A DNA stretch of 64,000 bases from Dehalococcoidia bacterium (lineage in GTDB: Bacteria; Chloroflexota; Dehalococcoidia; Lucifugimonadales; QGNO01), in contig CBDHCW010000010.1 of assembly GCA_965261445.1 (NCBI GenBank), forward strand, positions 183,995 to 247,994. Direction: 5' to 3'. Positions within the stretch are counted from its first letter, which is position 1. Each line of letters begins with the position of its first letter. This document shows positions 711 through 17,465 of this stretch, piece after piece. The notes beneath the pieces are model-generated. The model worked only from the letters and a program-made list of their open reading frames with translations. It made no database searches and was not told the origin of the DNA. The translations under genes were made by a program, and so were the position numbers.

Positions 711-723
711 TGTATTGGGGAAT

Positions 724-1620
724 ATGAGCAAGCAACGAGGTTACAACAGAACTTATAAAGGTCTCTCGAATAGTGATTTCTTGCTCATTGCGAAGGACGA
801 CAGGCCCCAACGAGAGATCGCTACAGCATGGGGTATCAGCCGACCGAGGGTTAATCAGATCAAGAGGGACTGGACATTCAAGCAGGATTCTTTCATCGTC
901 GGGGACGCAGAAAAGGTACTTGCCAGGATGGTCAGAGCGAGAGTGCGGGTGGATTGTGTGATTACTAGCCCGCCGTATAATCTCGGCCTGAAACCCCGGA
1001 ATGGCGGCACCAACTGGAATGCCAACAAATTGGCCGAGGAAGGATACGGTCAACACCAAGACAACATGCCGCGGACGGCTTACGTGAAATGGCAGCGCAG
1101 CATCCTGGGGAAATGCTTAGAGTTGGTCGGTAGCGCAGGGGTGGTGTTCTGGAACCTCAAACCGATCTTGCGCGACGGCATCAGCAACCTACACGCGGAC
1201 ATTCTCCAGGACATGCCTGTGCGCCAGGAAATCATCTGGGACAGAGGGTCAAGCAATAATCACGACGGGTCCGTTGTGCCTCCAACCCATGAAAAGGTCT
1301 TTATGCTCTGCCCCTCAAAGCGATGGAAGTTGCCCGATGAGCTCTATCAAACATCCCGTACATGGGGATCTGTGTGGCGCATTCCACCCGCAGTCAACAA
1401 TCCTCATCCCGCGCCCTTCCCGTTGGAACTGGCCCGCCGGATGGCTCTTGCATCCAGGTCCGCTATCCTAGACCCCTTTGCAGGGGGTGGAACTGTGGGC
1501 ATAGCAGCGCGTGAGTTGGGGCTACCTTTCTACTTGATTGACAACGACCCAGCCTGTAAGGAGATGTGGAAGGAACGCGCAGCGCCGAGCTGGACGGTGA
1601 AAAGCGCCGTCCTTGGCTGA
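724..1620 (+). CDS. DNA methyltransferase (beta-class N4-C/N6-A type) with N-terminal HTH; no cognate endonuclease seen
   Basis: Motif IV is VITSPPYNLG, followed later by motif I DPFAGGGTVGIAA (the beta-class order). An N-terminal HTH-like segment reads REIATAWGISRPRVNQIKRD. The ORF track starts at TTG 715; the ATG is at 724. Confidence 0.85.
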   Translation: MSKQRGYNRTYKGLSNSDFLLIAKDDRPQREIATAWGISRPRVNQIKRDWTFKQDSFIVGDAEKVLARMVRARVRVDCVITSPPYNLGLKPRNGGTNWNANKLAEEGYGQHQDNMPRTAYVKWQRSILGKCLELVGSAGVVFWNLKPILRDGISNLHADILQDMPVRQEIIWDRGSSNNHDGSVVPPTHEKVFMLCPSKRWKLPDELYQTSRTWGSVWRIPPAVNNPHPAPFPLELARRMALASRSAILDPFAGGGTVGIAARELGLPFYLIDNDPACKEMWKERAAPSWTVKSAVLG

Positions 1621-4294: not shown

Positions 4295-4309
4295 GTAGAC
4301 AGTGTCTAC
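4295..4309. promoter_or_regulatory. perfect palindrome GTAGACA-G-TGTCTAC upstream of the XRE gene / Type I R-M operon
   Basis: A 15-bp perfect palindrome lies 47 nt upstream of ATG 4356. It shares the TAGACA half-site with 2671-2691. Confidence 0.45.
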
Positions 4310-4355
4310 TGGCGGTAATCACCAGACGGGCATATGCACTACGAAGGAGAAGCTA

Positions 4356-4709
4356 ATGGCCAAGACAGCGAGGTTCGACGGCGGTGCCTTCTTCGCCGCT
4401 CTAGACGCAGAGAGGCAAGCCCGCCATTGCACCTGGAAGCAAGTGGCGGCGGAGTGCGGCATCAGCGCCTCCACCTTGACCCGAATGTCTCAAGGCAGGC
4501 ACCCTGACGTGAATGGTCTCGCGGCGCTGGCTGCGTGGTCAGGGCTGGACATGGACCAGTTCGTCAGGAGCGCCGCCACCAAGGAAGAGCCAGAGCCCTT
4601 GGCCGTGATCTCGTCCTGTCTCCACTCGGACCCGCGCCTCAATGAGGAAGCGGCCATTGCCCTTGACCAGATGGTGAAAGCAGCATACAGGAGCATGACG
4701 AGCCAATGA
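4356..4709 (+). CDS. XRE-family HTH protein (possible controller of the R-M operon)
   Basis: The SD GAAGGAG precedes the ATG at 4356. The HTH reads TWKQVAAECGISASTLTRMSQGRHPDVNGL. Its stop overlaps the hsdM start (ATGA). Confidence 0.75.
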   Translation: MAKTARFDGGAFFAALDAERQARHCTWKQVAAECGISASTLTRMSQGRHPDVNGLAALAAWSGLDMDQFVRSAATKEEPEPLAVISSCLHSDPRLNEEAAIALDQMVKAAYRSMTSQ

Positions 4710-6658
4710 CTAGCCTCAACATCAGCAGTTTCATATGGGGTATCGCGGACGATGTGCTGCGGGATGTATACGTCCGGGGCAAATACCGCGACGTCATCCT
4801 GCCCATGACGGTCATCCGACGCCTTGACGCCGTGCTGGAACCGACCACGGACGCCGTGCTCCACATGAAGGAGCAACTGGACGCCGTCGGCATCACCAAC
4901 CAGGACCAAGCCTTGCGCCAGGCTTCGGGCGAGGCCTTCTACAATGCGTCGCCCTTCCGGCTGCGTGACCTCACCTCCATCGGCCAGCAGCAGAAGCTTC
5001 GAGCCGACTTTGAGGCCTACCTGGACGGCTTCTCGCCAAATGTTCAAGAGGTACTGGACAAGTTCAAGTTCCGCAACCAGATTCCAACGCTGGTGGAGGC
5101 GGACGCGCTGGGGTTCCTGATAGAGAAATTCCTTGATAGCTCAATCAACCTCAGCCCCAAGCCTGTCCCGAACGGGGACGGCTCGGTGCGGCTGGAGGGA
5201 CTGGATAACCATAGCATGGGTACGGTCTTCGAGGAGTTAATCCGACGCTTCAACGAAGAGAACAACGAGGAAGCCGGGGAGCACTTTACACCGAGGGACG
5301 TGGTGCAGCTCATGGCGCGCCTCATCTTCCTGCCCGTCGCTGATGAGATCAGGTCCGGCACTTACTTGGTCTACGACGGCGCTTGCGGCACCGGCGGGAT
5401 GCTGACGGTTGCCGAGGAGACTTTGGCGCGGCTGGCTGATGAACATGATAAGGAAGTGTCTGTCCACCTGTACGGCCAAGAGGTCAATCCAGAGACCTAC
5501 GCCATCAGCAAGGCCGACCTGATCCTCAAGGGAGAAGGGAGCGAGGCCGACAACATCAACTATGGCTCCACTCTCTCTTCTGACGCCTTCCCCGCCAGCG
5601 AGTTCGACTTCATGCTCTCCAACCCGCCCTACGGCAAGAGCTGGAAGACCGACCTTGAGCGCATGGGAGGCAAGTCCGGCATCAAGGACCCCCGCTTCGT
5701 CGTGGAGCACAACGGCAACCCTGACTACTCCCTCATCACTCGCTCCAGCGACGGCCAGCTGATGTTCCTGGCCAACATGCTAAGCAAGATGAAGCACGAC
5801 ACGCCGATGGGCAGCCGCATCACCGAGGTACACAACGGCAGTTCTCTCTTCACTGGCGACGCTGGGCAGGGCGAGAGCAACATACGCCGCTGGATCATTG
5901 AGAACGACTGGTTGGAAGCCATCGTCGCCCTGCCACTGAACATGTTCTACAACACCGGCATCGCCACCTACATCTGGGTGCTCAGCAACCGCAAGGCGGT
6001 GCACCGCCAGGGCAAAGTGCAACTTATCGACGCCACCCAGTGGTACAGACCCCTGCGCAAGAACCTGGGCAGCAAGAACTGCGAGCTTTCTGATGAGGAC
6101 ATACACCGCATCTGCGACGCCTTCCTTGCCTTCGAGGAGACGGAGCAGTCGAAGATATTCCCCAACGAGGCCTTCGGCTACTGGAAGGTCACCGTGGAGC
6201 GGCCCCTGCGCATTGAGGGCATCGACCAGGAGCGCTCCTACACCGCCAAGGAAATCAAGGTGCTGAGGGACGAAGGCAAACGCACGGAGGCTGCGCCACC
6301 GGTCGTCAAGAAGGTCCACAAGGGAGTGGAAGCCGACCCGCTGCGCGGCCTGTTCCCCGGCACATGCAAGGGCGAGCCCGCCGTAGTGGAGTACGAGCCG
6401 GACACCGACCTCCGGGACACCGAGCAGGTGCCGCTTCTGGAAGAAGGTGGCATTGAGGCCTTCCTGCGCCGCGAGGTGATTCCCTACGCCCCGGACGCCT
6501 GGTACGTCCCCGACAGCGTCAAGGTGGGCTACGAGATCAGCTTCACCCGCCACTTCTACAAGCCGCAGCCGTTGCGCCCCTTGGAGGAGATACGGGCTGA
6601 CATACTGGCACTGGAGCGGGATACGGAGGGGTTAATGGCGGAGATTGTGGGAGGATGA
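4706..6658 (+). CDS. hsdM: Type I restriction-modification system, methyltransferase subunit
   Basis: The N-terminal HsdM domain reads FIWGIADDVLRDVY..DVILPMTVIRRLD. The SAM motif is VYDGACGTGGML and the catalytic motif is LSNPPYGKSW. Confidence 0.95.
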   Translation: MTSLNISSFIWGIADDVLRDVYVRGKYRDVILPMTVIRRLDAVLEPTTDAVLHMKEQLDAVGITNQDQALRQASGEAFYNASPFRLRDLTSIGQQQKLRADFEAYLDGFSPNVQEVLDKFKFRNQIPTLVEADALGFLIEKFLDSSINLSPKPVPNGDGSVRLEGLDNHSMGTVFEELIRRFNEENNEEAGEHFTPRDVVQLMARLIFLPVADEIRSGTYLVYDGACGTGGMLTVAEETLARLADEHDKEVSVHLYGQEVNPETYAISKADLILKGEGSEADNINYGSTLSSDAFPASEFDFMLSNPPYGKSWKTDLERMGGKSGIKDPRFVVEHNGNPDYSLITRSSDGQLMFLANMLSKMKHDTPMGSRITEVHNGSSLFTGDAGQGESNIRRWIIENDWLEAIVALPLNMFYNTGIATYIWVLSNRKAVHRQGKVQLIDATQWYRPLRKNLGSKNCELSDEDIHRICDAFLAFEETEQSKIFPNEAFGYWKVTVERPLRIEGIDQERSYTAKEIKVLRDEGKRTEAAPPVVKKVHKGVEADPLRGLFPGTCKGEPAVVEYEPDTDLRDTEQVPLLEEGGIEAFLRREVIPYAPDAWYVPDSVKVGYEISFTRHFYKPQPLRPLEEIRADILALERDTEGLMAEIVGG

Positions 6659-6664
6659 CTCACG

Positions 6665-8113
6665 ATGGTTAGACAACCGAATACACCACTAGACGCGCAG
6701 AAGTCGATCACACTCAAGCTCAGCGAGCCAGTGATTAACTCGGAAAATCCATGGGCCGACGACCTCCTTGCCAGACAGCAGATTGCCACACGGCTCACGA
6801 ACCTTGTTGCCACCCAAGAGCCGCCGCTGACCATCAGCCTCCATGGGCAATGGGGAACAGGCAAGACCTTCATGCTCAAGCGCTGGCAGAAAGACTTGGA
6901 AGGTACGGGCTTCAAGGCTATCTACTTCAACGCGTGGGAAGACGATTTTTGTGACGACCCTCTCCTTGCGATACTCGGTCAGATGACAGAGACTTTCAAG
7001 GAAGGCAGCCTCAAAACACTAACTCAAAAGATAGTTACAACTGCAGTGACGCTATTCAAGAGGAATGCACTGAGCGTTTTGTCCAATAAGATCGGGATAA
7101 CGCTTGATACTGAGCAAAATGAGAGAGATCTCTTAAAGGAGTACTTCAACGAAAGAGCGACAAAGGATGAATTGAAAGAACACCTAGCGAAATTGTCAGC
7201 AGCAGTAAGCCATGAAACCAAACATCCCCTAGTCTTCATTATCGACGAGCTAGACAGATGCCGCCCAAGTTTTGCGATTGAGCTTCTGGAAAGGGTCAAG
7301 CACATATTCGATGTTCCGCACATGGTGTTCGTCTTTGGTCTCAACCGAGATGAACTTTCCAAGTCATTGTCTTCAGTCTATGGTGATATCAACACGGACG
7401 TTTACCTTCGACGCTTCTTCGACTTTGAGCTCAATCTCCCGGAGGCGGACTCTCGTGGCTTTGCCACACAGTTGATCGATAGGTTTCAAATTGCTGACGT
7501 CTTCCAACAACTTGCTGAGGCTGCCCGTGACCGAGCGCCCCTTCACGACTACGATAACTACAGAACAGTCTTCCCGAAGCTATGGGCCGCCTTGGGGCTT
7601 TCTCTTCGGGACATTGATTACGGCATCCGATTGCTTGCTCTTCTAGCAAAGAATGTCCCCGTCGGGGCCTTCACCCATCCGTTCTTACTCGCTGTTCTCA
7701 TAGCAATGAAGTTCAAGAAGCCTGAATTCTATCGTTCGTTGATATCAGGAAACTTTCGGACGAGCGAGATTATGGACTATATCGATGACGAAGCATCAAG
7801 GCGAACTTCGACCGATGAAGCTCTCTCTCGTCACTTGGATAGGATTGAGGGCTTCCTCTACTGCGCTGATATAACAAACCGTGACGACCAAAGGCGCGGC
7901 GAGAATGCCCGTACGGAGCTCTTGAGATTGTCGCAGGGCGATGTGGAATTTGGGTTTCAAATTGTCTCTCGCCGGGCGCAGAGTGCGGATCCAGAACATT
8001 ATTCACGGATTATTCAGGCGATTGAAGTTGGCGATGGACTAGGGATTACCGGCGATACATTCGGTGATTTGGCGACACTCATTGATGCATACCAGATGCA
8101 ATTGAGACGTTAG
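6665..8113 (+). CDS. KAP-family P-loop NTPase
   Basis: Walker A is LHGQWGTGKTFML and the KAP-type Walker B is LVFIIDELDRCRP. The gene starts 7 nt after hsdM and ends 10 nt before hsdS. It is visibly more A/T-rich than its neighbours. Confidence 0.85.
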   Translation: MVRQPNTPLDAQKSITLKLSEPVINSENPWADDLLARQQIATRLTNLVATQEPPLTISLHGQWGTGKTFMLKRWQKDLEGTGFKAIYFNAWEDDFCDDPLLAILGQMTETFKEGSLKTLTQKIVTTAVTLFKRNALSVLSNKIGITLDTEQNERDLLKEYFNERATKDELKEHLAKLSAAVSHETKHPLVFIIDELDRCRPSFAIELLERVKHIFDVPHMVFVFGLNRDELSKSLSSVYGDINTDVYLRRFFDFELNLPEADSRGFATQLIDRFQIADVFQQLAEAARDRAPLHDYDNYRTVFPKLWAALGLSLRDIDYGIRLLALLAKNVPVGAFTHPFLLAVLIAMKFKKPEFYRSLISGNFRTSEIMDYIDDEASRRTSTDEALSRHLDRIEGFLYCADITNRDDQRRGENARTELLRLSQGDVEFGFQIVSRRAQSADPEHYSRIIQAIEVGDGLGITGDTFGDLATLIDAYQMQLRR

Positions 8114-8122
8114 GAGTCAACC

Positions 8123-9433
8123 TTGAGCACCACGCCCCAATCCTATCCCGCCTACAAGCCCTCCGGCGTCCCCTGGCTCGGCGACGTGCCGGCCCACTGG
8201 GAAGTACGACGACTTAGGTCGGTTGCCGATGTGATCAACGGTGCCACGCCTTCCACCAACGTCCCTAACTATTGGGACGGCCACATCCTGTGGGTCACCC
8301 CAGATGACCTGGGTAGACTAAGGAGTCGTTACGTCACTGACAGCGCACGTCAAATAACGGAAGAAGGCTATAGATCGTGTGGCACTAGCATGGCACCAGC
8401 CAACAGCCTAGCAGTCTCGACGCGCGCGCCTATTGGCCACTTGGGAATCTTGCAGTCAGAGGGCTGTGTAAATCAGGGTTGTCGGCTACTGATACCGGGT
8501 GCTTCCATTCAGGTTGAGTACCTGCACTATACTCTCAGCACCGGCCGCTCTGACCTCGCGTCTCTGGGACGGGGCAGTACCTTTACAGAGTTGTCGCGTA
8601 CGCAGTTGAGTGCATTCCGATTCCCTCTCCCACCGCTCCCCGAACAGCGCGCCATCGTGCGGTACCTGGACTACGTGGACCGACGCATCCGGCGGTACGT
8701 CGCCGCCAAGCGGAAGCTCATGGCACTGCTGGAGGAGGAGAAGCAGGCCATCGTCAACCAGGCCGTAACCCGCGGTCTGGACCCCAACGTCCGCCTCAAG
8801 CCCTCCGGAGTCGAATGGCTCGGCGACGTGCCGGAGCATTGGGAAGTGCGACGGTTACGGTCACTCGCAAGTATTGGAACAGGTGGACGGGATACGATCA
8901 ACCGGGAGGATGACGGTCAGTATCCTTTCTTCGTGCGATCTCAATCCGTCGAGAGGATAAACACGTGGTCTTTTGATGGTGAGGCGGTGTTGACGGCTGG
9001 AGATGGAGTGGGTGTGGGCAAGGTGTTCCATTACGTCAACGGGATGTTCGACTACCACCAGCGTGTTTACAAGTTCAGCAACTTTAGACACATTGCAGGG
9101 AAGTACTTCTTCCACTACTTCAGGTCTACGCTACGCAATGAGGTCTTTCAAGGAACAGCGAAATCCACCGTAGACTCTTTGCGGCTTCCCATGTTGCAGA
9201 ACTTTCCAGTCGCTTTTCCACCCCTTCTGGAACAACATGCCATCGTCGAGAACCTTGAAGATACAACCGCCAGCGTAGACCCCGCCATCACCCGCGCCCG
9301 ACGCCAGATTGAGTTGATCGAGGAATACCGCACCCGGCTCATCGCGGACGTGGTGACGGGCAAGCTGGACGTGCGAGAGCAGGCGGCGCCTCCAGAGAGT
9401 CCCGCTGAGTGCAACGAGGGGAACTTACAGTGA
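8123..9433 (+). CDS. hsdS: Type I restriction-modification system, specificity subunit
   Basis: The start is TTG. There are two variable TRDs, each preceded by KPSGV(P/E)WLGDVP(A/E)HWEVRRLRS and followed by conserved helices (LPPLPEQRAIVRYLD and FPPLLEQHAIVENLE). Confidence 0.9.
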   Translation: MSTTPQSYPAYKPSGVPWLGDVPAHWEVRRLRSVADVINGATPSTNVPNYWDGHILWVTPDDLGRLRSRYVTDSARQITEEGYRSCGTSMAPANSLAVSTRAPIGHLGILQSEGCVNQGCRLLIPGASIQVEYLHYTLSTGRSDLASLGRGSTFTELSRTQLSAFRFPLPPLPEQRAIVRYLDYVDRRIRRYVAAKRKLMALLEEEKQAIVNQAVTRGLDPNVRLKPSGVEWLGDVPEHWEVRRLRSLASIGTGGRDTINREDDGQYPFFVRSQSVERINTWSFDGEAVLTAGDGVGVGKVFHYVNGMFDYHQRVYKFSNFRHIAGKYFFHYFRSTLRNEVFQGTAKSTVDSLRLPMLQNFPVAFPPLLEQHAIVENLEDTTASVDPAITRARRQIELIEEYRTRLIADVVTGKLDVREQAAPPESPAECNEGNLQ

Positions 9434-10110
9434 TAGACATAGATTCTGTTGATGAGCGCAGACGAAACGGAACGTTGCGGCCTGAAGTGGCTCACATCTT
9501 AGAGTTGGTTGAGCTCCCCCGACACATTCCTGACATATGTAGGATCGCAGAACGCCTTGCTTTAGGTGACAAGTCTGTCATCGACGATCTAACCGTTATT
9601 GACAGAACAATTCCCGGACTGGGCTTCGTAGACATCAACGAGCGAACTCCTAGTGGTTCCTATACTGGTGTGTATCAAATTTCAGACAGACCGATCTTCA
9701 GAGGAATCCAATACGTGGGGATGCATTTGGGCATGAACAACATTGAGTGGCTTTGTCGAACCATAGTTGAGGATTCTTGTTACCACCTTGAAAACAGTCT
9801 AAAGCGCCGATTGAGTATTCGTGAGGACCAGCATTGGTCCGTAGGTGTAATCTTGAACACTCCGCAGGGCAAGCGGCTAAATGGATCGTTGCGAAAGCCA
9901 TTAATCGTATTGAACCGAGCGGTGTATAACAGGGCGAAGCATACCATTGAGATGATTGATCTCAACTCGCATATGTTCTCAGCCGCGGACGCGATCGCCA
10001 TCTATTTGTGCTGTCGTGCGATGGGTGCGAAACTAATCGGTAAGTTGGGCCTCAAAACGAACTATGGAATCCCAATATTCCCAGAGATGGAACCTGATGC
10101 GGAGACGTAG
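9430..10110 (+). CDS. hypothetical protein with possible HEPN/DUF4145-like R-x3-N-x3-H motif
   Basis: The GTG start overlaps the hsdS stop (GTGA); an alternative GTG is at 9409. The motif is LNRAVYNRAKHTIE. The gene is A/T-rich relative to hsdS and hsdR. Confidence 0.5.
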   Translation: MIDIDSVDERRRNGTLRPEVAHILELVELPRHIPDICRIAERLALGDKSVIDDLTVIDRTIPGLGFVDINERTPSGSYTGVYQISDRPIFRGIQYVGMHLGMNNIEWLCRTIVEDSCYHLENSLKRRLSIREDQHWSVGVILNTPQGKRLNGSLRKPLIVLNRAVYNRAKHTIEMIDLNSHMFSAADAIAIYLCCRAMGAKLIGKLGLKTNYGIPIFPEMEPDAET

Positions 10111-10140
10111 GACGTCAGCAACCGAAAGAGAGGTGACCGT

Positions 10141-10389
10141 ATGACGGACTGGAGCAAGTGCCCGGCGGTTGAGAGCGTGCCCGGCAAGGTAAGCGGGGCC
10201 TGGGTGTTCAAGGACACGCGGTTGCCGGTGTCTGCCCTTTTCGGCAACCTTGCGGAGGGCGCAACTGTCCACGACTTCATCGAGTGGTTCGGCGGCGTGG
10301 ACGAAGCGCAGGTGCGGGCGGTCTTGGAGTTCGTAGTGCAAGACCTTGACGCCAAGGTCGCTAAGGTCTCGCATGCGACTTCTGTTTGA
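10141..10389 (+). CDS. DUF433-family protein (antitoxin-like)
   Basis: PGKVSGAWVFKDTRLPVSALFGNLAEGATVHDFIEWF matches the DUF433 pattern (GxP...GTRxPV...L..G.s...i). It is paired with the downstream PIN-like gene. Confidence 0.8.
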   Translation: MTDWSKCPAVESVPGKVSGAWVFKDTRLPVSALFGNLAEGATVHDFIEWFGGVDEAQVRAVLEFVVQDLDAKVAKVSHATSV

Positions 10390-10708
10390 CCACAATGCGC
10401 CCCGGCAGCTTCGCCCTCACCTCGTCGGTCACGATGTTGACGTGGCGGAAGAGCGCGGGTGGGCGACGCTTGTCAATGGTGAATTGCTGGACCGGGCGGA
10501 AGAAGCAGGGTATGAAGTCGTGATTACTGCGGACAGGAACATGCCATATCAGCAGAACATCGGGAGCCGAAGCCTCGCGCTGATCGTTCTCGGGGCGAAC
10601 CGGTGGCCGCTCATCGAGCCAAGGATCGAGGATATTCGCGCCGCCCTGGATGAGATCCAGCCCGGAGAAGTGCGGGAAGTCCACATCCCGATGAGAGGCG
10701 AGACATAG
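10373..10708 (+). CDS. DUF5615-family (PIN/Mut7-C-like) protein (toxin-like)
   Basis: MRLLFDHNAPRQL...VVITADRNMPYQQN is typical of the DUF5615 partners of DUF433. The ATG at 10373 overlaps the DUF433 gene by 17 nt. Confidence 0.75.
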   Translation: MRLLFDHNAPRQLRPHLVGHDVDVAEERGWATLVNGELLDRAEEAGYEVVITADRNMPYQQNIGSRSLALIVLGANRWPLIEPRIEDIRAALDEIQPGEVREVHIPMRGET

Positions 10709-10709
10709 C

Positions 10710-13700
10710 GTGACCACCGACACCAGCGAGAAAGGGCTTGAGCGCCTCATCTGCGAAGCGCTAACAGGCGCTGCCTGCGATCCGCCGCAGGCTGGTGCGG
10801 TCTATGAGCGGCCGGCAGAGTACGGCGTGGGCTGGATATGCGGAGACCCTCAGGACTACCACCGGGAGTACTGCGTAGACCTGACGCAGCTATCCGCCTT
10901 CTTGCGAGCCACCCAGCCCGTAGCCGCTGAATCGCTTGGCCTAGACGAGGACGGCCCGACCCGGCGCAGATTCCTGGCTCGGCTGCAAGGTGAGATAACC
11001 AAGCGCGGCACTATAGAAGTGCTTCGCAAGGGGATCAAGCACGGGCCACACCAGATCGACCTGATGTACGGCACTCCGTCGCCGGGCAACGAGAAGGCTA
11101 GGGTTCTATACGGGCAGAACCGCTTCAGTGTGACCCGTCAGCTCCGCTACAGCAACGACAACGCGCAGCTTGCCCTGGACCTGTGCCTGTTCATCAACGG
11201 CCTGCCCGTCGCCACCTTCGAGTTGAAGAACAGCCTGACTAAGCAAACGGTGGATGACGCCGTAGAGCAGTATAAGCGGGACCGCAACCCCAGGGAGAAA
11301 CTCTTCGAGCTTGGCCGCTGCCTCGCCCATTTCGCCGTGGACGACCACGAGGTGCAGTTCTGCACGCATCTCAAGGGCAAGGCGTCATGGTTCCTGCCCT
11401 TCAACAAGGGATGGGACGACGGCGCGGGCAACCCGCCTAACCCCAATGGCCTCAAGACCGACTACCTGTGGAAGCAGGTGCTCACCCGCGACGGTCTCAC
11501 CAACATCATCGAGAACTATGCCCAGATCGTGGATACGAGGGACGACAAGACCGGACGCAAGAGGCGAGAGCAGATATGGCCCCGCCACCACCAACTGGAC
11601 GTGGTGCGCAGGCTGCTGGCCGATGCTTCCGGTAAGGGAGTCGGCTCCAGGTACCTGATTCAGCACTCGGCGGGAAGCGGCAAGTCCAACTCCATCGCCT
11701 GGCTGGCCCATCAGCTGATAGGACTGAAGCGGGACGATGCGACTATCTTCGACACCGTGATCGTGGTCACGGACCGCAGGGTGCTGGACAGGCAGATACG
11801 GGACACCATCAGGCAGGTCGCCCAGGTCGGCTCTGTCGTGGGTTACGCCGAGACCTCCGGCCACCTGCGTCGGCTGCTCCAGGAGGGCAAGCGTATAGTC
11901 ATCACCACGGTGCAGAAGTTCCCCTTCATCCTGGACGCCATCGGCAACGAGCACCGGGTCCGCAGGTTCGCCGTCGTCATAGACGAGGCCCATTCGAGCC
12001 AGGGCGGGCGGACGTCGGCGTCGGTGTCCATGGCTCTGGGAGAAGCGGGCGCTGAGGAAGAGGACGAGACCACCGAGGACAAGGTCAACCGGCTTATGGA
12101 GTCCAGGAAGCTACTGTCCAATGCCAGCTACTTCGCCTTCACCGCCACGCCTAAGAACAAGACCTTGGAGATATTCGGCACACCCGTTCCTGAAGGCGAG
12201 AATACGAAACACGTGCCCTTCCACTCCTACACCATGAAGCAGGCCATCCAGGAGCGGTTCATTGTCGACGTTCTGAAAGACTACACACCGGCGAACAGCT
12301 ACTACCGGTTGGTGAAGACGGTTGAGGGAGACCCGGAGTTCGACATGAAACGGGCAGGGAAGAAGCTGCGCCGCTACGTGGAGGACCACGACCACGCCAT
12401 CCGGCTGAAGGCGGAGATCATGGTCGACCACTTCCACGAGCAGGTGGCCGGCCTGCAGAAGATAGGCGGGCAGGCGCGGGCCATGGTAGTGACGAGCAGC
12501 ATCCGACGGGCCATCAGCTACTACTACGCCATTCGGGACTACCTGACGGAGCGCAAGAGCCCATATCAGGCCATCGCTGCCTTCTCCGGCGAGCACGAGT
12601 ACGATGGGACTAAAGTCACGGAGGCGTCCCTCAATGGCTTCTCGTCCAACCTGATCACCGACAGGATCCAGGAGAATCCGTACCGCTTCCTGGTCTGCGC
12701 CGACAAGTTCCAGACCGGCTACGACGAGCCGTTGCTGCACACGATGTACGTGGACAAGCCGTTGTCGGGAGTGAAGGCGGTGCAGACGCTCTCCCGTCTC
12801 AACCGGGCACACCCCAAGAAGCATGACGCCTTCGTGCTGGACTTCGCCAACGACACCGACACAATCCAGACCGCTTTCTACCCATACTACCGAACCACCA
12901 TTCTCTCGGAGGAGACCGACCCTGACAGGCTGCACGACCTAACAGCGGCTCTGGACGGCTATCAAATCTATGACCCGACCCAGATTTACGAACTCGTAGA
13001 GCGTTATCTTTCGGGATACGACCGCGACCGGCTCGACCCAATATTGGACGCCTGTGTCTCGGTCTACCGTGACCAATTGGACGAGGACGGCCAGGTCGAC
13101 TTCAAGGGCAAGGCGAAGGCATTCCTCCGGGCCTACGGGTTCCTAGCCACTATCTTGCCCTACACTGTTGCTGAGTGGGAGAAGCTCTCCATTTTCTTGA
13201 CCTTCCTCGTTCCCAAACTTCCCGCTCCCGTCGAGGACGACCTGTCGAAGGGGATTCTCGAAGCTATCGATATGGACAGCTACCGGGTGGAGAAGCAGGC
13301 TGTGCAGGACATCCAGCTTCCCGACGAAGATGCGGCGATAGGGCCGGTTCCCACCGATGGCGGAGGACAGAAAGCGGAACCAGAGATGGACCGACTCTCC
13401 AATATCATCAGGGACTTCAACGACCGGTTTGGCAACATCGAGTGGAAGGACCAAGACAAGATCGAGAAGGTGATTGCCGAGGAACTGCCCGCGAAGGTGG
13501 CTGGAGACAGGGCCTACCAGAACGCAATGGCGAACTCCGACCCGCAGAACGCCCGGATCGAGCACGACAAGGCCTTGGAACGGGCCATGGCAGACTATGT
13601 GGCCGACCCCATCGAGCTATTCAAGCAGTTCAGCGACAACGAGTCTTTCCGCCGGTGGCTTTCCGAGAGGGTCTTCGCCGCCACGTACTTGACACCTGCC

Positions 13701-13721
13701 ACACCTACGGTTGGCCAATAG
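10710..13721 (+). CDS. hsdR: Type I restriction-modification system, restriction (helicase-nuclease) subunit
   Basis: The GTG start is 1 nt after the upstream stop. The N-terminal nuclease core is DLCLFINGLPVATFELKN. The SF2 motifs are HSAGSGKSN, VIDEAHSSQ, FTATP and QTLSRLNR. Confidence 0.95.
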   Translation: MTTDTSEKGLERLICEALTGAACDPPQAGAVYERPAEYGVGWICGDPQDYHREYCVDLTQLSAFLRATQPVAAESLGLDEDGPTRRRFLARLQGEITKRGTIEVLRKGIKHGPHQIDLMYGTPSPGNEKARVLYGQNRFSVTRQLRYSNDNAQLALDLCLFINGLPVATFELKNSLTKQTVDDAVEQYKRDRNPREKLFELGRCLAHFAVDDHEVQFCTHLKGKASWFLPFNKGWDDGAGNPPNPNGLKTDYLWKQVLTRDGLTNIIENYAQIVDTRDDKTGRKRREQIWPRHHQLDVVRRLLADASGKGVGSRYLIQHSAGSGKSNSIAWLAHQLIGLKRDDATIFDTVIVVTDRRVLDRQIRDTIRQVAQVGSVVGYAETSGHLRRLLQEGKRIVITTVQKFPFILDAIGNEHRVRRFAVVIDEAHSSQGGRTSASVSMALGEAGAEEEDETTEDKVNRLMESRKLLSNASYFAFTATPKNKTLEIFGTPVPEGENTKHVPFHSYTMKQAIQERFIVDVLKDYTPANSYYRLVKTVEGDPEFDMKRAGKKLRRYVEDHDHAIRLKAEIMVDHFHEQVAGLQKIGGQARAMVVTSSIRRAISYYYAIRDYLTERKSPYQAIAAFSGEHEYDGTKVTEASLNGFSSNLITDRIQENPYRFLVCADKFQTGYDEPLLHTMYVDKPLSGVKAVQTLSRLNRAHPKKHDAFVLDFANDTDTIQTAFYPYYRTTILSEETDPDRLHDLTAALDGYQIYDPTQIYELVERYLSGYDRDRLDPILDACVSVYRDQLDEDGQVDFKGKAKAFLRAYGFLATILPYTVAEWEKLSIFLTFLVPKLPAPVEDDLSKGILEAIDMDSYRVEKQAVQDIQLPDEDAAIGPVPTDGGGQKAEPEMDRLSNIIRDFNDRFGNIEWKDQDKIEKVIAEELPAKVAGDRAYQNAMANSDPQNARIEHDKALERAMADYVADPIELFKQFSDNESFRRWLSERVFAATYLTPATPTVGQ

Positions 13722-13785
13722 ATAAGAGACATGGCCACCCCTTGCGGATGAACGGGGCTTCGGGTGGAGCGGGGAGTACGGCCGA

Positions 13786-13944
13786 TTACACCGCCAGAGC
13801 GAACCTCAACACCAGGGTTCTTGATTTTGTCAAGTTAGGTGGACAGCGGCGCAGACCCTGCAATTGAGGGTTGGCGGTGAGACTGCATGCGACAATACCG
13901 GCGGAAACGACTACCAGGGCGGCTGTCTGCCGGCGGTGTCTCAT
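13786..13944 (-). CDS. possible 52-aa signal/lipoprotein-like peptide
   Basis: Its ATG overlaps the TGA of the Cys-rich ORF (ATGA). MRHRRQTAALVVVSAGIVAC resembles a lipobox signal. The equivalent frame after the second Cys-rich copy is not conserved beyond ~13 aa. Confidence 0.2.
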   Translation of the reverse strand: MRHRRQTAALVVVSAGIVACSLTANPQLQGLRRCPPNLTKSRTLVLRFALAV

Positions 13945-14314: not shown

Positions 14315-15214
14315 CTATCTGGCGCTCCTCATCAGTCCGCCGTCCCTGAGCTGCCCCGTTAAGACAATCCAAAGGCAGAGAACTCCCAACGGGACCCATC
14401 CGAGGATGCCAACATAGCTCACAAAGAGCCAGTTTGGCCCACCCCAAAAGAGCAACAGCGTCAGGCTCGCGCCTGTGGTGTTCGTGGCTGAATGTCCCAG
14501 ACTTGCGGCCCAGATGCTTCCCGTCCTCACGCGGAGCCATCCAAAGATGATGGACAGCATGATCGCGCTGACTGCGAAGACCAGCATGCCAAGCATGGGC
14601 TGGTCAGGGAAGTTGTAGCCTCGTAGGTAAATTGGAAGGTGCCACAGTGCCCATATGATGCCTGTCACAACGGCGGCCCACAGCGGTCGATCACCCATTA
14701 AACGGACTTGGAGGTAACCACGCCAGCCGAATTCTTCACCCCACAGGATGGGGGTGACCACCAACGCTGCGATCATCATCTGTAACGGCAGAATGGCGAA
14801 GAGACCTGGAGGAAGAGAGGGGATCGTAACCCCCTCTGGTGCCAGTTCCGTCAGAGCACGGTCCAGGGTAAGATCTGGCTCGCTTACCCCCAGAGCTGCG
14901 GCTAGAAGTACAATCACCAATACTGCCGCGAGGGGCAAGCACCACCCGGCAAGGTAGTAGCGCCATCGCTCTATGTTCAACCCCAGTCCTGCATCCGCAA
15001 ACCCCTCCTGAGTCACCCACTTTCTCACGACAACAGCAGCAAGGGCTGGCGAAAGGGCTCCAGGTAGAATGGCGAGTTGAAACAGAGGACTATCGGGCGA
15101 CGGGCCCACCAGCAGGGCAATCTCCCAGAGCACCCAGGCCAGTCCGAAGGCGATCAGAAGGTATACGGCCACGCCCCTCTTGTTGGTATCCAACACCAAA
15201 GCCCCTACTGACAT
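14315..15214 (-). CDS. CPBP-family (CAAX/Abi) intramembrane glutamic protease
   Basis: It is a multi-TM protein with the motifs EEFGWRGYL, ALWHLP and HSATN. Its ATG overlaps the ATPase stop (TGATG); the ORF-track TTG start is at 15217. Confidence 0.85.
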   Translation of the reverse strand: MSVGALVLDTNKRGVAVYLLIAFGLAWVLWEIALLVGPSPDSPLFQLAILPGALSPALAAVVVRKWVTQEGFADAGLGLNIERWRYYLAGWCLPLAAVLVIVLLAAALGVSEPDLTLDRALTELAPEGVTIPSLPPGLFAILPLQMMIAALVVTPILWGEEFGWRGYLQVRLMGDRPLWAAVVTGIIWALWHLPIYLRGYNFPDQPMLGMLVFAVSAIMLSIIFGWLRVRTGSIWAASLGHSATNTTGASLTLLLFWGGPNWLFVSYVGILGWVPLGVLCLWIVLTGQLRDGGLMRSAR

Positions 15215-16911
15215 CAATCGTGCTGTTGTGCCAAGTAGCAGTCTTCTAACGGGGCCGCTGGTTGGACACCAAGGGCAATGGATAGCGGCCCAACACGTTG
15301 CCTCAGCTTTTCGGCGAGTTCCGCATCGGACTGGATCCGGGCAATGAGCGTCTGCTCATATAGGTTTCTTTTCTTAAAATCCAGTGCATGCGCGACTTCA
15401 GCAAGGACGCCACTCTCTCTGAGTGGATAACGGGCCAGCAGTTGGTCTAGGTCCCCGGCTTCCACTAGCTCTCTGAATGTCGCCAACTCTTCCTGGAAGG
15501 GAGATGTGACGGAGATTTTGATGTCTGTCTGGCCATCGTCCTTGATTGTCTCCCAGTTGGGAGCCTGCGAGACGATCCAATTCCTCACCACCTGCTCGCA
15601 GCGCCTGGCAGCCATCCTTTCGGCCAGTCCATCCTCTGCCAGGGCAGCGAAGGCCGCGTCTAGTGCTGGCTGCATCATGGAGCCTAACTCTCGTCCTAGC
15701 GACTCTTCCTGACGGCGGGCCACGGCATCCAGTGATTCGGAACAGTAGTAGAGCGACTCAACAGAGAAAGCATCGAGCACGAATACGCCACGATTGCGGA
15801 GGGTGTCCACTGCTTCTTGGTCTCGACCATCACCGTCAATCAATCCAAATGCCTCTACGTGGTGGAGGTGATATGAGCCTTGAATACCTTCAACGGCTCT
15901 CTGGACATCGGTGCTTCCGCCACTAGCCACGACGGAGACATCCGGAAACAGGGAGTTGTAGATCGGTGAGTCCAAGCTCGTCGCAGTCCCTTCAAGAAAG
16001 AGGACTTTGCGCCGCGAGCCCAAAATCGCCTGGCGTAACTCCTCTGGCATCTGGTCATTGGATTCGAGTAGGTCGATGTCCCAGGTGCTGGCCCTGTTGT
16101 TCTGCCATTCGCATGACCGAACCATTACGACTCCTGCAGCAGGGTTTGAGGCGGGTAGGGCCAGCTCATGCGTGGAAATGACGAACGTGCAGTCCGCGCG
16201 CCTGGCAAACACGGCCGCTAGGAAAGGGACGATTATGGATCGATGGAGGTGTCTCTCCGGTTCGTCAATCAGCAGTACGGTGCCGGGTTCGACGGTGAGC
16301 ACGGTCGCCCCAATTATTGCGGCGTTCCGTTCTCCATCTGACATCTGGGCGATACTGTAGGAAGCGTTCGCGTTTCGATGCTTCGCAATGATCTCCTCAT
16401 CGTTTGAGTTCTCCAGGGCAATTAAGAGTGTTCCCAAGGCCAGCAGGTCATTGAGTTCTGTGAATGCTGATACGGACTCTGCGGCGCGGTGTGCAGCCCC
16501 TTCCAAGTCCTTGCTGTCCACGAAACCCGTGATCGAACGTGCACGCGTGTTGTCCTTGGCTACTAGGTCGAAGAGTACCGCCGATTGCTTCCTCTCAGCG
16601 TTGTATTCTTGCCATAGAGACTCGTAGTTCCTCTCAGTGTCTGTATCCTCTTCCCCGAACTCTTTACGGCCTAGCGGAGTGAGGTCGAGGCTGCCAGAGC
16701 CTAGCCATGTTTGTCTGTGGGCTGAAATGCGCCGAATGTTCCGACCCTGGTGCGACGAAATGAGGTGTTGAATCAGGGCTGACTTTCCAGAACCATTAGG
16801 ACCCACTACAAAGAGGCATTCACCCCGGTTGAGGGATACGTGCAAGGGTTCCTGAGCAGTGCGAGGGATACCCCACTCCAAGCTTGGACCCAGATTGGCG
16901 GTTGTATCCAT
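15214..16911 (-). CDS. fused ABC-type ATPase / DUF4435 Toprim protein (OLD-family, PARIS AriA-AriB-like)
   Basis: The start is ATG 16911, with the SD GGGGGAGGA. The ATPase motifs are Walker A GPNGSGKS, signature-like MSDGERN, Walker B LLIDEPERHLH and ISTHE. The C-terminal half carries KVLFLEGTATSLD, VVASGGSTDV and FGLIDGDGRD (Toprim E...DxD). The ORF-track start at 17088 adds a non-protein-like N-terminus. Confidence 0.85.
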   Translation of the reverse strand: MDTTANLGPSLEWGIPRTAQEPLHVSLNRGECLFVVGPNGSGKSALIQHLISSHQGRNIRRISAHRQTWLGSGSLDLTPLGRKEFGEEDTDTERNYESLWQEYNAERKQSAVLFDLVAKDNTRARSITGFVDSKDLEGAAHRAAESVSAFTELNDLLALGTLLIALENSNDEEIIAKHRNANASYSIAQMSDGERNAAIIGATVLTVEPGTVLLIDEPERHLHRSIIVPFLAAVFARRADCTFVISTHELALPASNPAAGVVMVRSCEWQNNRASTWDIDLLESNDQMPEELRQAILGSRRKVLFLEGTATSLDSPIYNSLFPDVSVVASGGSTDVQRAVEGIQGSYHLHHVEAFGLIDGDGRDQEAVDTLRNRGVFVLDAFSVESLYYCSESLDAVARRQEESLGRELGSMMQPALDAAFAALAEDGLAERMAARRCEQVVRNWIVSQAPNWETIKDDGQTDIKISVTSPFQEELATFRELVEAGDLDQLLARYPLRESGVLAEVAHALDFKKRNLYEQTLIARIQSDAELAEKLRQRVGPLSIALGVQPAAPLEDCYLAQQHD

Positions 16912-17465
16912 AAGTCCTCCCCCTGCGTTGGAATGAGCCACTCTGCACCCGCCTTCGGCGAGGCCATTTCCGGGTGCCCTTGCATCATGTGTCCGAGCTG
17001 CTCGTCGGTGAGCCTGACCTCGTTTCCATGCGCGTCGGTGAAACGGCGCACGTCGGCCCCCATCACCAGATACCGTACCGTAAAGCATACCACGCTAGGG
17101 CATAGCAGCAGCTCGGCGGCGCTCTACAGCTTCCGATTCTGGGCTATCCTGGGAGTTGGGATTCAGGGGCATCTGGGGGAGAGTGTGTGTCAGCCGCCTG
17201 TCTGATTCTGGGCTCTCCAGGTGTATCAGCGCCGGCTCCAAGATTTGTCGGACACTGTCGCACAGTGGTCGGACAGATCTCCGAGCTAGAAGGCGATTTC
17301 AGGGTTTCAGGCACGAATGGGGTGAACTTGGCTCAGAAAAGACGCGCCAGGATTCCGATTCTACGGCGTTTTCGGGGGCCCCAGGCGCTCAGCACCAGCA
17401 GGGCAGCTCCACCGATGACGCGCCACAGTGAGGTGGCATAGATGAATAGGGCACTTCCTAGTGCC

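Follow-up and report, generated by a model that had tools for sequence, protein, structure and literature searches.

Why is a gene for a KAP-family P-loop NTPase placed between hsdM and hsdS of a type I restriction-modification (R-M) operon, and is its product tied to the R-M enzyme or does it act on its own? The question is raised by a locus in a stretch of 64,000 nucleotides from a Dehalococcoidia bacterium, here called the window. The operon is arranged in the order HTH-hsdM-KAP-hsdS-ORF226-DUF433-DUF5615-hsdR (Table 1). A preliminary description had located the KAP gene between hsdM and hsdS and had read two Walker motifs in its product; the open reading frame, the Pfam and PADLOC matches of HsdM and HsdS and the residue positions of both motifs bear this out. 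The window as a whole forms a defence island; it also encodes a type II methyltransferase at 715–1620 and a fused PARIS system (AriAB) at 15214–17088. No tRNA gene that might mark an integration site was found in the 64,000 nt.

Table 1 Features of the type I R-M operon with its embedded KAP gene; positions refer to the window
Feature	Position	Strand	Basis or remark
Small HTH gene (Xre/HTH_31-like)	4302..4709	+	Pfam HTH_31 5e-05, HTH_3 2e-04
hsdM, type I R-M methyltransferase subunit, 650 aa	4706..6658	+	Pfam HsdM_N and N6_Mtase; PADLOC MTase_I 1.9e-243
Cargo slot hsdM|hsdS	6655..8140		blastn against KAP-less sister operons
KAP-family P-loop NTPase, candidate PADLOC PDC-S20, 482 aa, ATG start	6665..8113	+	Pfam KAP_NTPase, PDC-S20 HMM
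Walker A GQWGTGKT, residues 61–68	6845..6868	+	read from the sequence
Variable helical hairpin, residues ~101–186, between Walker A and Walker B	6965..7222	+	AlphaFold2, conservation
KAP-type Walker B IIDELDRCRP, residues 192–201	7238..7267	+	read from the sequence
C-terminal all-alpha region, residues 265–482 (218 aa)	7457..8110	+	AlphaFold2, Foldseek, conservation profile
hsdS, specificity subunit, 436 aa, TTG start	8123..9433	+	Pfam Methylase_S x2; PADLOC Specificity_I 7.6e-92
ORF226, second cargo gene, hsdS|hsdR slot	9430..10110	+	GTG start overlaps hsdS stop (GTGA)
DUF433 gene, 82 aa, conserved operon backbone	10141..10389	+	Pfam DUF433 1.1e-11
DUF5615 gene, 111 aa, DUF433 partner	10373..10708	+	Pfam DUF5615 2.9e-05; conserved in sister operons
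hsdR, restriction/translocase subunit, 1003 aa	10710..13721	+	Pfam HSDR_N, SWI2_SNF2, ResIII, T1R_D3-like; PADLOC REase_I 2e-40

The HTH gene at the head of the operon probably encodes its controller. Its stop overlaps the hsdM start, and the same gene was found 5′ of hsdM in the loci L009, L082, L083, L089 and L093; because the relatives are 117 aa long, its true start may lie later. HsdM has more than 8000 homologues, the closest of which are 86–94% identical. Between the end of the hsdM stop at 6658 and the KAP start codon lie 6 nt, and the Shine-Dalgarno sequence GGAGGA shares nucleotides with the hsdM stop. The KAP stop and the hsdS start are separated by 9 nt containing an AGGAG, which stands 6 nt 5′ of the TTG. 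The spacings of 7 and 10 that had been given for these junctions are correct as coordinate differences. No promoter-like or terminator-like site was found on the + strand inside 4300–13100 and a terminator-like hairpin follows hsdR at 13801–13820, so a single transcript for the whole operon is consistent with the sequence. The KAP gene is probably transcribed together with the R-M genes and translationally coupled; of the stoichiometric co-expression expected earlier, the co-transcription with hsdM and hsdS is supported by the spacing and by the absence of internal promoter-like or terminator-like sites.

Downstream of hsdS, the DUF433 gene occupies the same place in L082, L083 and L089–L093; judged by its family and its pairing, it is presumably a toxin-antitoxin-like antitoxin. 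DUF5615 proteins have a PIN-like character, and the DUF5615 gene of the operon ends 1 nt before hsdR.

The assignment of the embedded gene to the KAP family is firm. Its protein matches Pfam KAP_NTPase (PF07693) with an E value of 1.7e-33 and 116.6 bits at a cutoff of 20, with residues 37–266 covering positions 1–233 of the 293 in the model, which settles the profile check that the preliminary description had proposed. Both family hallmarks are present, a Walker A of the form GxxGxGKT and a Walker B of the form hhhhDELDR followed by C-R-P. Across 23 homologues no exchange was seen at G61, W63, G64, G66, K67 and T68 of Walker A, nor at I192 and D194 through P201 of Walker B; in a set of 72 homologues the six Walker A residues are still conserved to at least 93%. 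At least 1725 homologues of the protein exist, and at E ≤ 1e-30 its homologues form 2399 clusters at 50% identity. The third-position GC content (GC3) of the KAP gene is 0.555 versus 0.81–0.83 for hsdM and hsdR. It was considered whether the low GC proves a recent transfer into the window, and this was rejected: in 27 of 27 loci the GC3 of KAP is below that of HsdM, and it resembles that of HsdS. Because the low GC3 is a family-wide trait, it is useless for dating.

Many KAP members reportedly carry transmembrane helices within the P-loop domain, though not all of them do. Since soluble KAPs exist, the absence of such an insert does not bar membership. In the window protein, no Kyte-Doolittle peak was found between Walker A and Walker B; the top 19-residue mean of 1.6 lies at residues 330–348, outside the insert, and the hydrophobic core there is only ~10 residues long. 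The earlier impression that a transmembrane insert is missing was accordingly right. Where many KAPs have their membrane helices, the AlphaFold2 model places two long helices (residues 114–142 and 156–185) with a sequence rich in charged and polar residues. As predicted from these data, the protein is soluble and cytoplasmic, without transmembrane helices.

The full-length AlphaFold2 model is only moderately confident (pLDDT 74), the C-terminal domain reaching a pLDDT of 93.9 and a pTM of 0.91. Nowhere is the protein more variable than in this C-terminal region: the fraction of majority residues is 0.76–0.79 in the KAP core, 0.43 in the insert between Walker A and Walker B and 0.30–0.42 in the C-terminal region, which probably includes a lid with the conserved residues S313-L314-R315. 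A Foldseek search with the C-terminal domain returned nothing better than E 0.9 in the PDB and E 1.9 in BFVD. The best PDB matches of the full-length model were RdrA of RADAR (Foldseek E 2.9e-5, TM 0.38–0.44) and ORC/Cdc6; when the PDB was searched by sequence with the KAP family profile, no match fell below E 0.29. No enzymatic effector domain was recognisable by Pfam, PADLOC or Foldseek of the C-terminal domain, and Pfam detected no recombinase or replication domain.

The limits of the slot become visible in the comparison with sister operons. In blastn alignments of the window with L089 and L090, homology breaks at 6654/6655 and resumes at 8141/8142; hence the DNA homology ends at the end of hsdM and restarts ~18 nt into hsdS. 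In L081, L082, L083 and L091 the homology is continuous through KAP. The operon of L089, with a 94% identical HsdM, is without KAP and its slot is filled by other cargo, with DNA identity to the window of 91% up to nt 6654 and of 95.8% over 10126 to 13930. A second homology gap at 9390–10125 marks the hsdS|hsdR slot, which holds ORF226. This gene is missing from the sister operons L082, L083 and L089–L093, and its GC3 is 0.54 versus 0.81–0.83 for hsdM and hsdR. The copy in the window has no Pfam, PADLOC or NCBIfam match, and none of its 126 homologues has a precomputed Pfam domain.

Operons with HsdM 88–94% identical were found to hold KAP in three of six instances and other cargo in the remaining three, namely an ABC-ATPase remnant, TIR with DUF6602, and TIR with Nmad2, MazG_C and UDG. 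Because unrelated cargo sits on backbones whose HsdM is 93–94% identical, it is the slot, not KAP, that defines the position between hsdM and hsdS. Judged by this comparison, the hsdM|hsdS slot is prone to recombination and accepts various defence-type cargo genes in exchange for one another, the KAP gene among them.

The distribution of the family was surveyed in 80 genomic loci of KAP homologues, mostly from Dehalococcoidia and other Chloroflexota MAGs. In 31 of the 80, hsdS follows KAP immediately on the 3′ side, in 29 of these 31 with a gap of -8 to +10 nt between the KAP stop and the hsdS start, and 30 loci have hsdM upstream together with hsdS downstream. The enrichment beside type I R-M genes on which the preliminary description had made its proposal depend is thus massive. 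However, in 37 of the 80 loci the KAP homologue is intact and type I R-M genes are absent from its neighbourhood, which consists of heterogeneous, mostly housekeeping genes. Embedded and solo copies are interleaved in a neighbour-joining tree. At L001 and L010, intact solo KAP genes (encoding proteins 73% and 56% identical) are flanked by pseudogenised hsdM-3′ and/or hsdS-5′ stubs, remnants from which we infer that the R-M genes were lost around an intact KAP. Both the solo intact homologues and this decay argue, as far as gene content can tell, against an obligate association with R-M, although solo copies might still work with R-M enzymes whose genes lie at other sites of the genome.

Co-inheritance with the R-M subunits is partial: pairwise distances of KAP correlate with those of HsdM and HsdR with rho 0.50–0.55 (Mantel p about 5e-4), the value for HsdM being 0.50 versus 0.88 for HsdM with HsdR. 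The HsdM/HsdR proteins that accompany KAP homologues fall into two subfamilies (E 0 and about 1e-136, respectively), and in distant clades KAP stands elsewhere within R-M loci (L064, L067, L078). KAP-bearing R-M operons also contain DarT and Macro, an M78 peptidase with DUF4411, Fic or PIN genes; TIR, SIR2-HerA and AHJR-HEPN genes recur as neighbours, and transposases and integrases are often near. All-against-all clustering of the neighbours in the 80 loci revealed no recurrent partner besides HsdM, HsdS and HsdR, for which reason KAP as half of a two-gene system was rejected.

We consider it reasonably probable that the KAP gene is an exchangeable PDC-S20 cargo gene encoding an autonomous, NTP-driven anti-phage layer that rides in the hsdM|hsdS slot of a conserved backbone. 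KAP would then act alone, as a second, R-M-independent layer expressed from the R-M promoter. Its variable helical regions may recognise a phage-derived trigger, and binding and hydrolysis of NTP could drive a conformational or oligomeric switch, for which an RdrA- or ORC-like ring would be the closest analogue in structure. Since an effector domain is not recognisable, any output is guesswork; as a speculation, it would be most plausible that the protein uses ATP to sequester or remodel a phage protein or nucleoprotein complex, or that it consumes NTP.

The preliminary description had instead considered a sensor or effector that monitors the R-M complex, by analogy with PrrC, which EcoprrI restrains. 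Such a guard would stay latent on the type I R-M complex and be unleashed when Ocr, ArdA or a Stp-like peptide disables the enzyme. The position-specific linkage to hsdS with its narrow gap, the partial co-inheritance with HsdM and HsdR and the co-transcription with hsdM and hsdS speak for it, as does the precedent of PrrC, the textbook guard embedded in an R-M system. PARIS senses the anti-restriction protein Ocr, and the fused PARIS system lies 1.5 kb 3′ of hsdR, which makes it plausible that guarding the R-M system is a theme of this locus. The guard is opposed, however, by the 37 intact homologues without adjacent R-M genes, by the R-M decay around KAP at L001 and L010, by the unrelated cargo in the same slot on nearly identical backbones and by the occurrence with two HsdM/HsdR subfamilies; moreover, the protein has neither a nuclease nor another toxic effector domain that could be released. 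A PrrC signature is likewise missing: PrrC models are absent from the PADLOC hits at E ≤ 0.01, and Pfam shows neither a nuclease nor a HEPN domain. The PrrC-like sensor is consequently unsupported and we regard it as unlikely. Very improbable in our judgement is an accessory subunit or regulator of the type I enzyme, one that assists assembly or loading in an NTP-dependent manner or shifts the balance between restriction and modification (restriction alleviation). Translational coupling to hsdS, the placement between both methyltransferase subunits, the lack of an effector domain and the AAA+/ORC-like fold, as proteins of this kind often load or remodel DNA-bound complexes, would suit this role. 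But most operons of the HsdM subfamily appear to be without a close KAP (by a rough indirect match covering the 120 closest HsdM relatives), other cargo fills the slot in three of six operons, solo copies are common and, to our knowledge, characterised type I enzymes need no such factor.

Taken more broadly, the junction between KAP and hsdS is tighter than cargo status needs and could reflect functional coupling to HsdS. KAP might thus be wired to the type I enzyme by co-translational assembly with HsdS/HsdM, as a guard against anti-restriction or as a new fourth subunit; we give this only a small chance, but if true, PrrC would have a counterpart built on a KAP NTPase, whose all-alpha domain would be a new kind of output domain. 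Hardly probable is the view that KAP does not serve defence at all and has a selfish or maintenance function for a mobile cassette, or that it is a hitch-hiking NTPase with an unrelated cellular role. The cassette-like behaviour in the DNA comparison, the GC3 below that of HsdM in all 27 loci, the frequent transposases and integrases and the many solo copies among housekeeping genes would fit with it, but the co-cargo and neighbours are overwhelmingly of defence type (TIR, DarTG, Fic, PIN, SIR2-HerA, PARIS), no recombinase or replication domain is present, and related KAP NTPases give up to six-log phage protection (PMC13552941).

With KAP as exchangeable anti-phage cargo, the type I R-M operon appears as a scaffold that accepts cargo in two slots, hsdM|hsdS and hsdS|hsdR, and the window as a clean natural example in which defence genes were swapped in both slots on an otherwise 91–96% identical backbone. 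The KAP occupant, ~480 aa long and free of transmembrane segments, represents a family for which the first evidence of an anti-phage role is recent. This subfamily offers natural operon pairs with and without KAP, solo copies and a compact, predicted soluble protein that lends itself to biochemical and structural study. By itself the KAP finding does not overturn anything; the family of the gene is already catalogued (PADLOC PDC-S20) and the logic of "guilt by embedding" is already published.

Among the known systems, RdrA of RADAR (PDB 8fnu, 8hr8) is the best structural match of the window KAP, albeit a weak one, with the TM score normalised to the query. RdrA is a defence ATPase of about 800 aa that forms heptameric rings, whereas the window KAP has 482 aa, shares no detectable sequence similarity with it and is not accompanied by an RdrB deaminase in the operon. 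PifA, responsible for T7 exclusion by the F plasmid, and QatA share the KAP NTPase domain, and both are matched in PADLOC at 1e-17. The match to PifA covers only the NTPase part (profile positions 16–287 of 720) and full-length similarity was not found; PifA is membrane-associated. The match to the NCBIfam model of QatA (5e-19, 68.3 bits at a cutoff of 600) is likewise limited to the NTPase part, and the partners of the QatABCD system, QatB, QatC (QueC-like) and QatD (TatD), were not found beside the window KAP.

Like the window KAP, the PrrC gene of PrrC/EcoprrI encodes a P-loop NTPase from within a type I R-M operon, whose transcript it shares. However, PrrC combines an ABC-type ATPase with a C-terminal anticodon nuclease and is encoded between hsdS and hsdR, whereas the window protein is of the KAP type, has no nuclease domain and is encoded between hsdM and hsdS. 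PrrC is almost exclusively embedded in type I R-M systems (bioRxiv 10.1101/2024.01.29.577857), and while it almost never occurs outside of them, the family of the window KAP is often solo.

Closer in kind are four KAP NTPases with uncharacterised C-terminal regions, EF_KAP and three metagenomic ones, which protect E. faecalis from phage by up to six logs (PLoS Biol 2026, PMC13552941). In these proteins the KAP P-loop domain is followed by ~200–320 aa without a known domain or structural relative, and mutational analysis, done for EF_KAP, showed its protection to depend on Walker B and on the C-terminal region (PMC13552941). By this description, the window KAP resembles them in its C-terminal domain, which is likewise without a structural relative. 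It differs in that transmembrane helices are predicted for EF_KAP, including one within its NTPase domain, and the genes of this group adjoin small serine recombinases (PMC13552941), while the window KAP has no such helices and lies inside an R-M operon.

The closest relationship is to PDC-S20, one of a set of candidates for which genes located inside BREX, DISARM and type I R-M loci served as the starting point (Payne, Hughes, Fineran & Jackson 2024, bioRxiv 10.1101/2024.01.29.577857). In the literature searched, PDC-S20 was not mentioned and no experimental test of it was found. It is a single-gene candidate, and the window KAP matches its model PDLC04959 with E 5.4e-100 and 334 bits over residues 17–411, the last ~70 residues lying outside the model; the three further PDC-S20 models, PDLC04956, 04958 and 04957, match at 1e-45 to 1e-35. 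Embedded and non-embedded occurrence are both seen in the KAP family, with hsdS directly downstream in 31 of 80 loci and no type I R-M gene in 37. By its profile matches, the KAP gene of the window belongs to the candidate anti-phage family PDC-S20.

The KAP-family P-loop NTPase gene is part of a single densely packed gene array on the + strand that extends from position ~4300 to 13721, with only 6 nt between hsdM and KAP and 9 nt between KAP and hsdS. Shine-Dalgarno-like sequences precede the starts of both KAP and hsdS. Within the array, the + strand showed no promoter-like or terminator-like sites; a terminator-like hairpin is located 3′ of hsdR. In the 482-aa translation, Walker A (GQWGTGKT) comprises residues 61–68 and the KAP-type motif IIDELDRCRP residues 192–201. 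A transmembrane segment is present in many KAP NTPases; a Kyte-Doolittle scan detected none at the usual KAP location here, the sole hydrophobic peak (1.6) being a short stretch in the C-terminal region (residues 330–348). Since the ORF, motifs, Pfam match, gaps and missing transmembrane segment all checked out, the preliminary description of a KAP NTPase without transmembrane insert, tightly spaced between hsdM and hsdS, was confirmed in all details.

Features of the R-M operon and neighbouring defence genes in the window
Feature	Position	Strand	Match or remark
N6/N4 DNA methyltransferase (type II MTase)	715-1620	+	PADLOC MTase_II 8.7e-41; weak N-terminal HTH match
HTH regulator	4302-4709	+	
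hsdM	4706-6658	+	
KAP NTPase	6665-8113	+	Pfam KAP_NTPase E 1.7e-33
hsdS	8123-9433	+	
ORF226	9430-10110	+	GTG start overlaps hsdS stop (GTGA)
DUF433, 82 aa	10141-10389	+	
DUF5615, 111 aa	10373-10708	+	
hsdR	10710-13721	+	
CAAX/Rce1-like protease gene, after AriAB	14315-15217	-	
Fused PARIS-type AriAB (AAA_21 + DUF4435)	15214-17088	-	PADLOC AriAB 1.3e-58

Six sister operons were examined among the closest HsdM relatives (88–94% identity). All six have the backbone HTH-hsdM-slot-hsdS-slot-hsdR, and KAP occupies the first slot in three of them (L091, L092, L093). The first slot contains an ABC-ATPase remnant in L089, a 146-aa ORF with a ThsB-type TIR and DUF6602 in L090, and a 158-aa ORF with TIR, Nmad2, MazG_C and UDG in L094. 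The cargo of L090 (9965–11930) and L094 (8963–12870) consists of multi-gene sets resembling nucleotide-centred defence modules. A DNA comparison of the window with L089 gives 91% identity as far as nt 6654, where hsdM ends. Beyond this point there is no similarity until 8141, ~18 nt into hsdS; a second break spans 9390–10125 (ORF226), after which identity runs at 95.8% through DUF433, DUF5615 and hsdR. Because similarity breaks at these places, KAP and ORF226 represent cargo that fills two slots of a backbone otherwise conserved, and the conserved hsdM 3′ and hsdS 5′ ends would be obvious homology arms for cargo exchange. DUF433 and DUF5615, a toxin-antitoxin-like pair with a 17-nt overlap that ends 1 nt ahead of hsdR, belong to the conserved backbone in all close sister operons but one: in L094, a 96-aa ORF and PIN take this place.

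Solo copies, i.e. KAP genes without type I R-M genes nearby, can carry traces of such an operon. In L001 (KAP 73% identical), R-M remnants are located directly on both sides of KAP: a frameshifted remnant of the last ~45–60 codons of hsdM (7806–7990) and the first ~44 codons of hsdS (9483–9614). Likewise, L010 has kept the first ~32 codons of hsdS (9451–9546) directly after KAP. As these stubs adjoin an intact KAP gene, the R-M genes were deleted and KAP was left. The pseudogenised stubs correspond exactly to the slot-flanking segments, the 3′ end of hsdM and the 5′ end of hsdS. Their presence suggests homology arms or deletion scars.

The wider context was studied in 80 KAP loci drawn from a one-genome-per-species collection and queried with the R-M proteins of the window, mainly MAGs of Dehalococcoidia, other Chloroflexota, Caldilineaceae, Nitrospirales and Gammaproteobacteria. 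The proposed co-occurrence of KAP with R-M genes was borne out by strong enrichment: hsdS was directly downstream in 31 of the 80 loci, with a gap of −8 to +10 nt in 29 of these 31. This enrichment is enormous because only about one gene in a thousand is a type I hsdS. Both hsdM upstream and hsdS downstream were found in 30/80 loci, the exact order hsdM-KAP-hsdS in 14/80 and no type I R-M gene was seen in 37/80. Metagenomic homologues at 92%, 81% and 78% identity all showed hsdM-KAP-hsdS; ORF226 was absent beside the latter two, and the contig of the first stops within hsdS.

Enrichment aside, this context points to KAP as cargo rather than a dedicated R-M partner. Embedded and solo states were intermixed in a neighbour-joining tree, the clade of the window KAP including solo genes at 71–73% identity, and distances of KAP and HsdM correlated with rho 0.50 versus 0.88 for HsdM and HsdR. 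In distant clades KAP takes other positions within R-M loci: between hsdS and hsdR (L078), after hsdS (L064) or after hsdR (L067). Extra genes often sit between hsdM and KAP or hsdS and hsdR; within KAP-bearing operons they are of the defence or toxin type (DarT and Macro, M78 peptidase and DUF4411, Fic, PIN), and TIR, SIR2-HerA and AHJR-HEPN genes repeatedly adjoin KAP. Clustering of all neighbours in the 80 loci revealed no conserved partner beyond the R-M genes. The 37 solo genes have heterogeneous, mostly housekeeping neighbours, with a few SIR2-HerA genes, DNA methylases or a dGTPase among them. The preliminary description had drawn an analogy to PrrC, the anticodon nuclease held in check by EcoprrI. 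Such a role is improbable for KAP: its main support is the strikingly constant KAP-hsdS junction, but this constancy is a property of the slot and common to other cargo. KAP is exchangeable cargo in an R-M slot that, by gene layout, is co-expressed with the R-M genes, and the solo copies together with R-M decay around intact KAP suggest that it probably acts autonomously.

GC3 of KAP was below that of HsdM in 27/27 related loci (mean difference −0.23) and resembled HsdS, while HsdM and HsdR exceeded the local background. By these contrasts the operon is mosaic in composition, with its M/R pair conserved and its KAP/S part variable. In L080 (6139–8795), KAP is split by a 414-aa ORF, probably an insertion element, into residues 9–164 and 161–430; KAP is frameshifted in L008, L016, L056 and L071, and the match is split in L072.

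ORF226 (226 aa, GC3 0.54) had no Pfam, PADLOC or NCBIfam match and 126 homologues, and is a second uncharacterised cargo gene, arguably more novel than KAP. Only the window has it in the hsdS|hsdR slot, and the sister operons lack it; homologues adjoin transposases and a SIR2-STAND gene (L084) or a lone DUF433 gene (L085). The fused AriAB gene is located 1.5 kb downstream of hsdR. PARIS senses the anti-restriction protein Ocr, hence an R-M guard may already adjoin this type I system. For the upstream methyltransferase, no restriction partner was recognisable among the neighbouring ORFs tested.

In the homologue alignment, the majority-residue fraction was 0.76–0.79 in the NTPase core, 0.43 in a helical hairpin that forms an insert between the two Walker motifs (residues ~101–186) and 0.30–0.42 in the C-terminal region, lowest at the extreme C-terminus. 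Such a profile is typical of a conserved engine whose recognition or output parts diversify. The full-length AlphaFold2 model was moderate (pLDDT 74); its best PDB matches, RdrA of RADAR (E 2.9e-5, TM 0.38–0.44) and ORC/Cdc6-type AAA+ proteins, weakly suggest a ring-forming or switch-like NTPase. Modelled separately, the C-terminal 218 residues gave a very confident structure (pLDDT 93.9, pTM 0.91) for which neither PDB nor BFVD yielded a significant match, and the family profile found no solved relative among PDB sequences. By analogy to AAA+ architecture, the conserved S313-L314-R315 may provide a sensor-2-like arginine in a lid. Analogy and the conservation pattern lead us to propose that the variable helical parts would recognise a trigger, followed by an NTP-driven switch or oligomerisation.

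More than 1725 KAP homologues were present in a 5.8-billion-protein set, and clusters at 50% identity numbered 2399 (E ≤ 1e-30); nearly all full-length homologues among the matches listed have ~450–520 aa. Distant relatives (27–28% identity) occur on plasmids of L. reuteri (L087, NZ_CP089963.1) and B. glumae (L088, NZ_CP100184.1). One has as neighbours a small "recombinase family protein" together with a pair made up of a methyltransferase and a DEAD/DEAH helicase; the recombinase recalls the association with serine recombinases in PMC13552941. At the other locus, two KAP NTPases lie in tandem (~1000 and ~450 aa).

In PADLOC-DB, KAP matched PDC-S20 (E 5.4e-100), whereas PifA and QatA (both 1e-17) matched through the common NTPase domain only, with NCBIfam QatA at 68 bits versus a cutoff of 600. 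PDC stands for "phage defence candidate"; 145 PDC systems, drawn from genes that lie within BREX, DISARM and type I R-M loci, were later added to PADLOC (bioRxiv 10.1101/2024.01.29.577857). No mention of PDC-S20 was found in the literature searched, which makes it a catalogued candidate family of only predicted function. In a 2026 study, phage protection of Enterococcus faecalis was shown for four KAP NTPases whose C-terminal regions are uncharacterised, and EF_KAP, the one tested by mutation, required Walker B and the C-terminal region (PMC13552941). From this precedent, PDC-S20 membership, gene company and the defence-island setting (type II MTase and fused AriAB) we infer a probable anti-phage function. 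The papers searched contained no description of a sharply defined two-slot R-M backbone, of R-M stubs around solo KAP copies or of a transmembrane-free KAP whose modelled C-terminal domain lacks a structural relative. The arrangement itself, with defence genes lying inside a type I R-M system, is already known in kind, and the window KAP belongs to the already catalogued candidate family PADLOC PDC-S20.
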